Origin: Patescibacteria group bacterium
GTDB lineage: Bacteria > Patescibacteriota > Patescibacteriia > 2-01-FULL-39-33
Direction of reading: 5' to 3'
NCBI GenBank assembly: GCA_041662745.1
Contig: JBAZRV010000004.1
Span: forward strand, 30,001 to 62,000
DNA: 32,000 nucleotides
This document shows, piece by piece, positions 16,986 through 24,136 of this stretch (position 1 is its first letter; each line of letters begins with the position of its first letter). The notes below the pieces were generated by a model. The model was not told where the DNA came from and searched no databases. It worked only from the letters and a program-made list of their open reading frames with translations. A program made the position numbers and the translations under genes.

Positions 16986-17038
16986 TTGTCATTCCCGCGT
17001 ACCTTGCCTACCGACAGGCAGGGGCGGGAATCCAGGTT
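16986..17038. repeat. Nested palindromic repeat unit: outer attcccgc/gcgggaat arms with an inner ccttgcct...aggcaggg hairpin in the loop
   Basis: The outer arms 16991-16998 and 17024-17031 are complementary, as are the inner arms 17002-17009 and 17016-17023. Both 14-nt ends (ttgtcattcccgcg and cgggaatccaggtt) recur at 28203-28234 inside the RT gene. A degenerate relative (gtcgtcctgatcgtaatgagggatc) follows at 17044-17068. Confidence 0.8.
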
Positions 17039-18119: not shown

Positions 18120-18204
18120 AACGGATTAATTATAACATAAAATTATCAACGAAGCAAAATCAAACAAAAATAAAAGCCAGCCTAACGCTGACGTTTCATT
18201 TCAG

Positions 18205-18276
<72 letters not shown>

Positions 18277-22202: not shown

Positions 22203-23465
22203 GTGCCACTTAAGTACTGCCTTTATGCCAGAAAATCGACCGAGGCCGATGACAAGCAAGTGTTATCCATCGAATCCCAAGTCAAAGAGATGCTGGCTCT
22301 GGCTAGCAAGGATTCCTTAGATGTAGTAGAAATCAAGCGGGAAGCCCACTCATCTAAGGATGTTGGCCAAAGGCCGATTTACAACGAAATGATTTCTGAA
22401 ATCAGAGCGGGCAAGTTTAACGGCATTCTGACCTGGGCGCCGGATCGGCTCAGCCGCAATGCCGGAGATTTGGGCTCAGTTGTGGATTTGATGGATCAGA
22501 AACTACTTTTGGAAATCAGGACGTATGGCCAGAAGTTCAGCAATAATCCCAATGAGAAATTCCTGTTAATGATTTTAGGCAGCCAAGCCAAGCTGGAAAA
22601 TGACAATAAAGCGATTAACATTAAAAGAGGACTCCGAACCAGGTGCGAAATGGGCTGGCGGCCGGGCGTGGCTCCGACCGGATACTTAAATGAAAAACAC
22701 GCCGACAAAAAGTGCCAATCCCGATTAGATCCCAAGAGAGCTGTCATTATCAAAAATATGTTCGAGAAATCGGCTAATGATAATTGGAGTGGCCGAAAAA
22801 TCTACAGATGGCTTCGCGAGATTGACTTTAGAACTAAGACCGGCAAGCGATTAGTTTTGGCCAATGTCTATCTGATTTTAAGAAATCCATATTACTACGG
22901 TGAATTTGAATTCCCGGTGGGTAGTGGTAATTGGTACAGTGGCAAACATACGCCGATTATCACTAAGGAACTATTCGACAAAACGCAATTAGCCCTTAAC
23001 GACCACAATCTACCTAAGACCGAGAGCAAGGAATTCGCCTTCACTAAACTAATTAAATGCGGCTATTGCGGTTCGGGCATTTCGGCTGATGAGAAATTCA
23101 AGAAGCTTAAAAACGGCGGCACTAACCGCCATGTCTATTATTTTTGCTCCAAGGCCAGAAATATAGATTGCAAAAATCAACCGATTAATGAAACCAACTT
23201 AATCACTGAACTGGCCGGCTTAATCGATCGGATCAGCTTGGATGAACTGGGCGTCCAGCAGAAAATTGAGGATGAATTCAAAAGATACAACAAATTCAGA
23301 ATCAGCGTGCTGGGTAAAAAGAATGAGGAATGCAATAGCGAAGTGGACATCAAGAATTTCGTCAAATACCTACTTAAAGACGGCACGATTCTGGAAAAAC
23401 GAGAATTGCTTGCTTGCCTTAAAAGCAGATTGATCCTAAAAGACAGGCAAATCAGTTTGGAATAA
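22203..23465 (+). CDS. Large serine recombinase (resolvase domain, recombinase domain and zinc ribbon)
   Basis: GTG start. YARKSTEADDKQVLSIESQ carries the catalytic Ser context, followed by WAPDRLSRN and the Zn ribbon CGYCGSGIS...YYFCSKARNIDC. 420 aa. Confidence 0.85.
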   Translation: MPLKYCLYARKSTEADDKQVLSIESQVKEMLALASKDSLDVVEIKREAHSSKDVGQRPIYNEMISEIRAGKFNGILTWAPDRLSRNAGDLGSVVDLMDQKLLLEIRTYGQKFSNNPNEKFLLMILGSQAKLENDNKAINIKRGLRTRCEMGWRPGVAPTGYLNEKHADKKCQSRLDPKRAVIIKNMFEKSANDNWSGRKIYRWLREIDFRTKTGKRLVLANVYLILRNPYYYGEFEFPVGSGNWYSGKHTPIITKELFDKTQLALNDHNLPKTESKEFAFTKLIKCGYCGSGISADEKFKKLKNGGTNRHVYYFCSKARNIDCKNQPINETNLITELAGLIDRISLDELGVQQKIEDEFKRYNKFRISVLGKKNEECNSEVDIKNFVKYLLKDGTILEKRELLACLKSRLILKDRQISLE

Positions 23466-23479
23466 ATCTAAAACTAAAA

Positions 23480-23505
23480 ATACCGCGGAAAAACCGCGGT
23501 ATTTT
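23480..23505 (+). terminator. Rho-independent terminator after the recombinase gene
   Basis: ataccgcgg (23480-23488), loop aaaaa, ccgcggtat (23494-23502), then ttt. Confidence 0.8.
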
Positions 23506-23554
23506 GTGGCTAAATCAGTGATACCTCTCGGTCATTTGACTTAGCATAAGCGTG

Positions 23555-23628
23555 TTGCGGGGGGCGGATTCGAACCGCCGACCTCTTGGTTATGAGCCAA
23601 GCGAGCTGCCGGACTGCTCTACCCCGCG
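23555..23628 (-). tRNA. Initiator tRNA-fMet (CAU)
   Basis: CGCGGGG TA GAGC AGTCCGGCA GCTC G CTTGG CTCATAA CCAAG AGGTC GGCGG TTCGAAT CCGCC CCCCGCA A. The C1xA72 mismatch is typical of bacterial initiators. Only two G-C pairs, not three, close the anticodon stem. Confidence 0.85.
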
Positions 23629-23673
23629 ATAATATTTTATTTTCCCTCTCTCCTTAAAAAGATGAGACTGGTG

Positions 23674-23755
23674 TGCCCGAGGAGAGACTCGAACTCTCAC
23701 ATATTGCTATACACGATTTTGAGTCGTGCGCGTCTACCAGTTCCGCCACTCGGGC
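23674..23755 (-). tRNA. tRNA-Leu (CAA), type II with a long variable arm
   Basis: GCCCGAG TG GCGGAACTGGTAGACGC G CACGA CTCAAAA TCGTG TATAGCAATATGT GAGAG TTCGAGT CTCTC CTCGGGC A. The acceptor, anticodon and T stems all pair. Confidence 0.9.
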
Positions 23756-24015
23756 CTGAGTTATAACAAACTTTTTAACCATTCTTTACCACAACCTGAC
23801 TTTAAATATTTTTCTCTTTGTCTTGCATCTATTCTCGTACTATACTTTTCTGTTATAATCATTTTAAATGGTCGATAAAATCTTGTTGTCCTCTCTCGTC
23901 CATTATTGTGGCGACTAAATCTGTCATCAAAATCAGAGGTTTGACCGACATAAATATAATTATGTTTTATACTTTGCAAGGCATAAACAGTATACTCCAT
24001 AAGAAAAATATTTAA
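23722..24015 (-). mobile_element. Putative 294-bp GIY-YIG cassette carrying a replacement tRNA-Leu 5' half
   Basis: This is the interval between the two copies of the tRNA 5' half. It contains only the duplicated 34 nt and the GIY-YIG ORF. The boundaries are inferred from where homology ends. Confidence 0.45.
23761..24000 (-). CDS. Small stand-alone GIY-YIG nuclease-domain protein (79 aa)
   Basis: MEYTVYALQSIKHNYIYVGQTSDFDDRFSRHNNG...RQREKYLK has the GIY-YIG pattern (Y.VY...YVG.T...R...H...E). The start is set at ATG 24000-23998. The 21-codon extension in the track ORF reads through tRNA-derived sequence. Confidence 0.8.
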   Translation of the reverse strand: MEYTVYALQSIKHNYIYVGQTSDFDDRFSRHNNGRERTTRFYRPFKMIITEKYSTRIDARQREKYLKSGCGKEWLKSLL

Positions 24016-24069
24016 AGTCGTGCGCGCCTGCCTGCCGGCAGGCAGGTCTACCAGTTCCGCCACTCGGGC
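24016..24069 (-). pseudogene. Orphan 5' half of tRNA-Leu(CAA), positions 1 to U33, interrupted by a 20-bp palindrome
   Basis: Plus-strand agtcgtgcgcg (24016-24026) and tctaccagttccgccactcgggc (24047-24069) are identical to 23722-23732 and 23733-23755 of the intact gene. Homology ends exactly at anticodon position 34. Confidence 0.85.
24027..24046. repeat. Perfect 20-bp palindrome cctgcctgccggcaggcagg
   Basis: Exactly self-complementary. It belongs to the same family as the inner hairpin ccttgcctaccgacaggcaggg at 17002-17023. Confidence 0.9.
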
Positions 24070-24107
24070 AATTTAGACTTTATTTATTTTATACTATTTT
24101 TTGAAAA

Positions 24108-24136
24108 TTGTCAAATATTTCAGAGTTTGATATAAT
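24108..24136 (+). promoter_or_regulatory. Sigma70-like promoter for the 24198 membrane-protein gene
   Basis: TTGTCA at 24108-24113, a 17-nt spacer, and TATAAT at 24131-24136. The ~55-nt leader contains a hairpin in which ctatttga (24156-24163) pairs with tcaaatag (24176-24183). Confidence 0.5.

Follow-up and report, generated by a model that had tools for sequence, protein, structure and literature searches.

Integrase islands enter transfer RNA (tRNA) genes carrying a copy of the tRNA 3' end, and REP elements are short dispersed palindromes associated with RAYT (IS200/IS605-type) transposases. Small nucleases of the GIY-YIG family have been described beside tRNA genes and beside hairpins: in phage T4, the GIY-YIG gene of SegB lies among or in tRNA genes, is polymorphic for presence and absence, and leaves the essential gene spared (PMC2330249), while SsnA from Neisseria meningitidis cleaves single-stranded DNA beside the NTS hairpin (PMC11893778, Chenal et al. 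2025). Here, we describe a locus with traits of these systems in a 32,000-nucleotide (nt) stretch (contig 4, positions 30001-62000; henceforth termed the window) of the genome of a Patescibacteria group bacterium (GCA_041662745.1, henceforth G000; 1.0 Mb in 10 contigs, completeness rating 98%). In this locus, a gene for a 79-amino acid (aa) GIY-YIG nuclease stands between an intact tRNA-Leu(CAA) gene and an orphan copy of the 5' part of that same gene, and the copy is interrupted by a 20-nt palindrome. On balance, the comparative data presented below favor a compact, selfish-looking cassette family residing in tRNA genes and consisting of a GIY-YIG gene, a signature 20-nt hairpin and a duplicated tRNA 5' part.

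The cassette resembles Ssn systems in that its protein is a single GIY-YIG domain of the same size class (~80-95 aa) and its gene adjoins conserved hairpin copies (PMC11893778). Also as in Ssn systems, further hairpin copies are scattered over the genome, and the type of hairpin varies with the protein clade; G000 itself carries a typical Ssn-like gene with NTS-like hairpins (L002). The cassette differs in the hairpin itself, which has the form CCTGCC..GGCAGG (CCTGCCTGCCGGCAGGCAGG), whereas the Ssn NTS/SRM form, GTCATTCC..GGAATC, does not flank the cassette gene. It also differs in its protein, whose best sequence and fold matches are UPF0213 and Slx1 and which is only distantly related to the Ssn-like paralog, and in being embedded in tRNA genes with duplicated tRNA parts, the term 'tRNA' occurring 0 times in PMC11893778. 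The traits named above for SegB recur here, but Seg proteins are two to three times longer and include a DNA-binding domain, whereas the cassette protein is a bare catalytic domain; in addition, Seg genes come without target duplication and without a signature hairpin, and they reside in a phage rather than in a cellular chromosome. Homing endonuclease genes in general differ from the cassette, which has no fixed insertion point. As with integrase islands, a tRNA gene is targeted and partly duplicated, leaving one intact gene and a partial copy at the other border; the cassette, however, duplicates the 5' end, has no integrase, measures ~300 bp instead of kilobases and shows variable junctions. 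With REP/RAYT systems it has in common a palindrome in tens of copies and one or few small nuclease genes adjoining the repeat, yet a hydrolytic GIY-YIG enzyme takes the place of an HUH/Y1 transposase able to rejoin DNA, and residence in tRNA genes is a new context. By sequence (phmmer E 6e-4) and by fold alike, the UPF0213/YhbQ proteins (PDB 1zg2, 1ywl) are the closest relatives of known structure, and they are of equal size, although the similarity is weak (32% identity to 1zg2 in the Foldseek alignment) and these proteins are without assigned function or described genomic context. A literature search of open-access papers and preprints, which included the hairpin sequence, yielded no description of the cassette architecture. 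The GIY-YIG nuclease, the cognate hairpin repeat and the tRNA target kept alive are of known kinds; what is new is that they occur together, that the 5' end is duplicated and that a site-specific hairpin sits in dead tRNA copies.

Read on the minus strand and given in window positions, the locus is composed as follows:

24086-24114, minus strand: sigma-70-like promoter (TTGACA, 17 nt, TAAAAT; promoter scan 11/12)
24047-24069, minus strand: first part (a) of the orphan tRNA-Leu copy, nt 1-23, covering the 5' strand of the acceptor stem, the D stem and the D loop; exact repeat of 23755-23733
24027-24046, no strand: perfect 20-nt palindrome CCTGCCTGCCGGCAGGCAGG (repeat search)
24016-24026, minus strand: second part (b) of the orphan tRNA-Leu copy, nt 24-34, covering the 3' strand of the D stem, the 5' strand of the anticodon stem and the first two bases of its loop; exact match to 23732-23722
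24002-24019, minus strand: left arm of an 18-nt perfect inverted repeat (repeat search)
23761-24000, minus strand: gene for the 79-aa single-domain GIY-YIG nuclease, stop codon included (PF01541, E 4.7e-17)
23798-23815, minus strand: right arm of the 18-nt inverted repeat, within the gene and coding for REKYLKS (repeat search)
23756-23760, minus strand: 5-nt spacer from the stop codon to tRNA position +1 (sequence)
23673-23755, minus strand: intact tRNA-Leu(CAA) (ARAGORN; Rfam tRNA model, 57.4 bits)
23554-23628, minus strand: tRNA-Met(CAT), downstream in the same transcription unit (ARAGORN, Rfam)
23477-23505, minus strand: intrinsic-terminator-like hairpin that ends the unit (12-pair stem, then a T run)

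The two tRNA copies are separated by 260 nt, made up of a 15-nt leader, the open reading frame (ORF) of 240 nt and 5 nt of spacer. They share two exact direct repeats, one of which (D1) spans 24 nt; by our own estimate, an exact repeat of this length is expected by chance in 32 kb with a probability of ~2e-6. The orphan copy departs from the intact gene one base before the anticodon (TTA in the copy, CAA in the tRNA), and the palindrome sits where the D loop meets the 3' strand of the D stem, with GGTAGA before it and CGCGC after it. The ORF starts at an ATG, where the family alignment begins as well; a longer frame that starts at a GTG inside the tRNA copy was rejected, as the alignment gives it no support. 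The ORF listing contains no other ORF within the 314 bp between promoter-proximal leader and tRNA gene, and the two tRNAs were the only matches in an Rfam scan at E up to 1. A group I intron or a split tRNA was rejected on the grounds that Rfam detects the two tRNAs only, that the ORF takes up 240 of the 260 nt and leaves no room for a ribozyme, and that a complete tRNA follows.

Evidence that the cassette is an addition to a pre-existing gene comes from a search of the locus against 60 relatives of G000. In G001 and G002, two congeneric species, the promoter and leader seen in G000 continue straight into a 100% identical tRNA-Leu gene, and the promoter ahead of the uninterrupted gene in G001 is identical in sequence to that of G000. 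Relative to these sister species, G000 carries 314 extra bp between the tRNA-Leu(CAA) promoter and its gene; because nothing separates the promoter and leader from the identical tRNA-Leu in the sisters, these 314 bp represent an insertion or, alternatively, a precise loss in the sisters. The comparison also indicates that part a of the orphan copy is contiguous with the native promoter and leader, and that the promoter, originally that of the tRNA-Leu gene, now precedes the orphan copy and the nuclease gene. All 16 relatives in which the tRNA-Leu(CAA) locus was read have it empty, and the order tRNA-Leu, tRNA-Met is kept in relatives. A first-pass annotation of the window had stated that the first 34 nt of tRNA-Leu(CAA) are repeated upstream with only a palindrome interrupting, that a 79-aa GIY-YIG ORF is all that separates the copies, and that the unit had inserted into a single existing tRNA-Leu gene, for which uninterrupted alleles should be sought; the exact matches, the PF01541 hit and the empty sites of the sister species agree with all of these statements.

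Seven of the eight species of the genus lack a close nuclease homolog, which leaves G000 as the sole carrier. In L095, a metagenome contig whose source is more distantly related to G000 (72% protein identity), a cassette occupies the same tRNA-Leu(CAA), tRNA-Met locus, with the hairpin placed as in G000 and the same leader junction, and with a copy that ends 2 nt before the G000 copy end. One site is thus polymorphic for presence and absence among relatives, with the host tRNA intact in every case. This history reflects two separate gains, or else a single old gain after which the closer relatives lost the cassette precisely; recombination between the direct repeats would yield such a loss. 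At the start of its ORF, L095 additionally has a 16-nt expansion of ATGTATT-like repeats (positions 430-470) with several in-frame ATG codons.

To place the locus in a wider context, we searched a genome and a metagenome collection as well as the relatives of G000, gathered 136 loci encoding relatives of the protein, divided them by identity to the G000 protein, and recorded whether a co-oriented tRNA-Leu lay within 150 nt and whether a CCTGCC..GGCAGG hairpin lay nearby. Of 69 loci with at least 52% identity, 8 of which are at a contig end, 55 have the tRNA-Leu and 59 the hairpin; the corresponding counts for the 67 loci below 52% are 2 and 4. The tRNA-Leu partners comprise all five anticodons, and the clade is also found beside tRNA-Arg. 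Hosts include several Patescibacteria lineages, Omnitrophota, Ignavibacteriota, Bacteroidota with cultured Flavobacteriaceae among them, and one bin labelled Gammaproteobacteria. The ORF is nearly always preceded by a partial 5' copy of the neighboring tRNA that has the local acceptor stem and is interrupted by the hairpin, and the distance from the stop codon to tRNA position +1 has a median of 6 nt (n=45 related loci). In Bacteroidota and Ignavibacteriota a different order is common, with an intact tRNA first, the ORF next and, last, a tRNA copy that is near-complete but disabled by a hairpin or two. In G041 and G047, an old tRNA has been split into 5' and 3' fragments that flank the ORF together with a complete tRNA; the complete middle tRNA in G047 (L018) differs in sequence from both flanking fragments, and this cassette seems to bring a replacement tRNA. 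Tandem cassettes are frequent, with periods of 314-349 bp, and an intact tRNA is preserved in all loci. From these shared features, we conclude that the G000 locus very likely belongs to the cassette family. More distant GIY-YIG clades, accompanied by different palindromes, occur beside tRNA-Arg, Asn, Glu, Lys or Met. Among them, L068, L074 and L143 (tRNA-Glu/Lys) and L078, L079 and L168 (tRNA-Met) have the nuclease gene 45-80 nt downstream of the tRNA, with a palindrome immediately after the tRNA that is TCACCNAGCTNAGCTNGGTGA in the former and of the ACGCTTAGCGT type in the latter.

The encoded protein scores 62.5 bits against Pfam PF01541 (cut-off 22.6). Among full-length homologs, 61 of 63 are intact. 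The catalytic residues, namely the tyrosines of GIY and YIG (Y6, Y17), R27, H31 and the metal-binding E63, do not vary across an alignment of 32 homologs, and in a set of 61 their conservation is 97-100%. An AlphaFold2 model (pLDDT 97.5) shows the alpha/beta fold of the catalytic domain and retrieved UPF0213 BH0048 (E 4e-5), the structure-specific nuclease Slx1 (TM 0.67-0.70) and the catalytic domain of I-TevI in Foldseek searches. The nuclease is conserved and probably active. Its Ssn-like paralog in G000, with which BLAST aligns it over 31 residues only (32% identity), is a second small GIY-YIG gene (97 aa) on contig 6, 37800-38250 (L002, 1340-1940). The paralog is flanked by NTS/SRM-like hairpins (GTCATTCCTGG..CCAGGAATCCAGG) and two different tandem-repeat arrays, and it looks like a typical Ssn-type gene.

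The hairpin has a preferred site. We counted 55 hairpin insertions in tRNA-Leu copies, of which 37 lie between GGTAGA and CGCGC, i.e., at the end of the D loop; others fall within the D loop (5), at the border of anticodon stem and loop (4) or in the T arm (3). Some copies have 10-nt arms set 10-57 nt apart with an unrelated loop between them. The hairpin family is dispersed, with 16 copies in G000 at up to 3 mismatches and further copies in relatives. Within tRNA genes, hairpins are confined to dead copies: intact tRNA-Leu and tRNA-Pro genes retain the target sequence without the hairpin, and insertion into an intact tRNA is presumably lethal. A further view of the insertion is provided by the tRNA-Pro(GGG) locus of G000 (contig 1, 119300-119910; L086), where two to three tandem dead copies of the first 39 nt stand upstream of the gene with a period of ~215 bp. 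Three of the 16 hairpins of G000 are found here, one per dead copy, at the equivalent site between GTA and CGC. The orthologous array in G001 (L087) has the same dead copies minus exactly the 20 hairpin nucleotides, and from this difference we infer that hairpin insertion is precise, separate from the duplication of tRNA parts, and recent in the nuclease-bearing lineage. There is no nuclease gene between the tRNA-Pro dead copies; the 155-nt spacer was considered as a decayed nuclease gene and rejected (best E 0.66 with the family hidden Markov model), and it has no other match in the genome. The hairpin may act as a recognition site, as a block to recombination between repeats, or as a scar that protects the dead copy. 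Under a lax criterion, 6 of the 16 G000 copies lie in loops of larger hairpins, as compared to 31% of random sites; for stems of at least 6 pairs the figures are 4 of 16 and 7.5% (p ~0.03), a lead only, as the copies are not independent. Three CCTGCC..GGCAGG hairpins are nested in loops of NTS/SRM-like hairpins (GTCATTCCCGC ... GCGGGAATCCAGG), namely at window positions 17003-17022, on G000 contig 3 at 60127 and on contig 6 at 13303.

Hairpin and nuclease also co-occur at the level of whole genomes. Among the 60 relatives of G000, six encode a close homolog (E below 1e-20), and each of these six carries the hairpin in 5 or more copies. Across 151 Flavobacteriaceae genomes, with homologs called at E up to 1e-8, the hairpin is present in 31 and absent from 12 genomes that have the homolog, and present in 24 and absent from 84 that do not, corresponding to an odds ratio of ~9 among genomes that are not independent by kinship; a control with the reversed pattern gave 0 matches in every one of the 151 genomes. 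Of the 14 genomes that encode a close homolog, 13 have the hairpin, in many cases at a distance of 20-40 nt from the nuclease ORF, and in Robertkochia marina the remaining copies reside in intergenic repeats. The nuclease clade and the hairpin family travel together across phyla, though not strictly.

The ends of the tRNA copies vary. Relative to the first anticodon base, the copy ends between -20 and +5 in 33 loci, and in 4 of the 33 at -1 as in G000. In G000, the left arm of the 18-nt inverted repeat forms the junction of orphan copy and start codon and repeats ORF codons 61-67 in inverted orientation, and the last 4 nt of the tRNA copy (GACT) are at the same time the first 4 nt of this repeat. 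Because GACT is common to both, the true end of the tRNA-derived sequence may lie anywhere from nt 30 to nt 34. The microhomology and inverted duplication at the G000 junction are more suggestive of an accident during replication or repair than of precise cut-and-paste. The helix formed by the inverted repeat is present in the predicted minimum-energy and centroid RNA folds of G000, and also in the fold of L095, with one compensatory pair. A role as a family-wide RNA switch was rejected: only G000 and L095 have the repeat, and 61 other loci are not above shuffled controls. We regard the helix as a lineage-specific feature.

These observations revise several elements of the first-pass annotation. 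Its exact break at the anticodon describes G000, where identity stops one base before, but is not a property of the family, given the scatter of copy ends and the end 2 nt earlier in L095. The palindrome, which it had treated as an incidental difference, is instead a hallmark of the family and, by the tRNA-Pro comparison, a separately inserting unit. The proposal that the cassette imports a replacement 5' half gains from G047, whose middle tRNA differs from the fragments, and loses from the local acceptor stem that the copy has in nearly all loci; for G000 itself, import and local duplication of the 5' half are indistinguishable because the copy, the gene and the sister-species genes are identical. 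The notion of a cassette that keeps its target tRNA alive stands, in that an intact tRNA is always preserved, without the fixed anticodon break and the incidental palindrome that had been attached to it. The suggested search for other GIY-YIG ORFs with duplicated tRNA 5' parts gave homologs that overwhelmingly lie with tRNA genes and duplicated 5' parts of tRNAs.

Based on genome comparisons, we consider the cassette probably selfish and mobile. How it would move is a more tentative matter: a nuclease-made break repaired via the 5' region of tRNA-Leu is one possible mechanism, to which we lend somewhat less than even credence. In such a scheme, the nuclease gene would be read from the strong tRNA promoter on one transcript with tRNA-Leu and tRNA-Met, from which RNase P would free the tRNA. 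The nuclease, which is probably structure-specific, may, if it resembles SsnA and Slx1, recognize either the hairpin or tRNA-gene DNA that is single-stranded and folded. Recombination through the first 25-35 nt of tRNA-Leu genes, which are conserved, would repair the breaks, and this repair would copy the cassette in and leave a direct repeat of the tRNA 5' part. Selection would retain only those products that have one intact tRNA. The regenerated tRNA would still be a target, allowing repeated insertion and tandem arrays, and recombination between the repeats would delete the cassette precisely and produce the empty sites of the sister species.

Several points weigh against the cassette reading and its mechanism. 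Dead tRNA 5' copies without a nuclease gene exist in the tRNA-Pro array and at about ten other tRNAs of G000, so duplication of tRNA parts is independent of the cassette. Since a hydrolytic GIY-YIG enzyme cannot join DNA, insertion of the hairpin needs a further host step. The intact tRNA retains the preferred hairpin site, and a nuclease aimed there would therefore endanger the host. Two genomes are rich in hairpins (G002 with 33 copies, G024 with 11) and have no homolog at E up to 1e-5. Finally, no near-identical cassette was found at a second site, the best matches reaching 64% over the full length in the genome collection and 72% in the metagenome collection at the protein level, and the borders of the mobile unit are undefined for this reason. 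A bolder model makes the minimal GIY-YIG protein and its 20-nt hairpin a new DNA-insertion system, in which the protein, as a structure-specific single-strand nuclease, would cut folded tRNA-gene DNA at loop/stem borders and, with host repair, write the hairpin precisely into redundant tRNA copies, mostly between GGTAGA and CGCGC; disabling the copies and splitting the direct repeat would shield the ~300-bp cassette from recombinational loss while it spreads among tRNA-Leu genes across phyla. We consider this model unlikely as it stands.

Three other explanations were weighed against the same data. A defined 294-bp element, made up of a replacement tRNA 5' half and the GIY-YIG gene, might home to a fixed position at anticodon nucleotide 34 and have acquired the palindrome later by accident. 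The empty site in sister species suits such an element, as do the start of the repeat exactly at tRNA +1 and the stop codon abutting the tRNA in most loci, both expected for a unit that carries its own 5' segment, and the intact middle tRNA of G047 that is unlike the two flanking fragments of the old gene. A fixed target is, however, difficult to reconcile with orphan copies that end at variable positions, with a G000 junction blurred by 4-nt microhomology with the inverted ORF copy and a nearest relative that breaks 2 nt earlier, and with the local acceptor stem in the orphan copies of nearly all loci. As 59 of the 69 loci have the hairpin, and as it prefers one site, it is no accident, and the regenerated tRNA would still carry the fixed target. 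Homing of this kind is accordingly rather improbable. We hold it similarly doubtful that the gene is not currently mobile at all and instead represents an old, vertically inherited, host-useful nuclease on a tRNA promoter, comparable to Ssn in its modulation of DNA uptake, and that the sisters lost it by direct-repeat recombination. L095 has the same locus and junction while closer relatives are empty, as ancestry with precise loss would predict; the ORFs are intact with conserved catalytic residues, the protein tree clusters partly by host phylum, and SsnA has a host-level role in Neisseria (PMC11893778). Vertical descent fits less well with the occurrence of the same clade at all five tRNA-Leu isoacceptors and tRNA-Arg in unrelated phyla, with protein identities of 62-64% between phyla that nearly match the 67% within the family of G000, with tandem arrays and split resident tRNAs that resemble repeated invasion, and with the 7 of 8 species of the genus that are without a close homolog.

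Coincidence, i.e., a partial tandem tRNA duplication, a generic REP-like hairpin landing in neutral DNA and an unrelated small ORF, would draw on the many partial tRNA duplications in G000 that have no nuclease and on a hairpin that is dispersed, also in intergenic repeats and in nuclease-free genomes. The comparative counts already contradict this explanation, which we consider extremely improbable: the three-part layout recurs at dozens of loci in several phyla, hairpin and nuclease are associated genome-wide with an odds ratio of ~9, and 37 of 55 insertions in tRNA-Leu copies use the same site.

If mobile, the cassette would, as far as we know, be among the smallest autonomous gene-carrying elements of bacteria (~300 bp), with a reach from ultra-small Patescibacteria to cultured Flavobacteriaceae. 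It occupies essential tRNA genes and leaves them alive, in a manner that mirrors integrase islands with duplication of the 5' rather than the 3' end. The family also represents a second clade of bare GIY-YIG proteins tied to a cognate hairpin, extending the Ssn finding and offering candidate site- or structure-specific single-strand nucleases, and it explains many of the 'orphan tRNA halves' and tRNA pseudogenes in annotations. These questions are directly testable because cultured carriers exist (Robertkochia marina, R. flava and Flagellimonas baculiformis).

Adjoining the tRNA-Met gene, the window encodes a 420-aa large serine recombinase (Resolvase, Recombinase and zinc-ribbon domains; 22203-23465, plus strand), which lies at the edge of an island between the tRNA(CAT) genes at 18204-18276 and 23554-23628. 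We considered the recombinase as a part of the cassette and rejected it, as it is absent from related loci and belongs to this separate neighboring island.

Further irregularities were noted among the tRNA genes of G000. ARAGORN reports 45 tRNA genes and no tRNA-Phe in this 98% complete genome. About 10 of the 45 are accompanied by a partial self-copy no more than a few hundred nt away, with 5' parts upstream of Lys, Arg, Gly, Pro and Leu, and 3' parts downstream of Tyr (two), Val, Cys, Gly and Ser. A shared element of 85-100 nt separates the anticodon arm from the T arm in second, near-complete copies of tRNA-Lys(CTT) and tRNA-Gly(GCC), and it also occurs near tRNA-Asn (contig 4, 108624-108790 and 112250-112400; contig 5, 27669-27751 and 12381-12425; L175, L176). 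The element has no Rfam match at E up to 0.1; it contains GAGCCGAAAGCGAAGTCGAG ... GATGAATGCGACC ... CCCAGGAACG and may be an intron-like or ribozyme-like insert.

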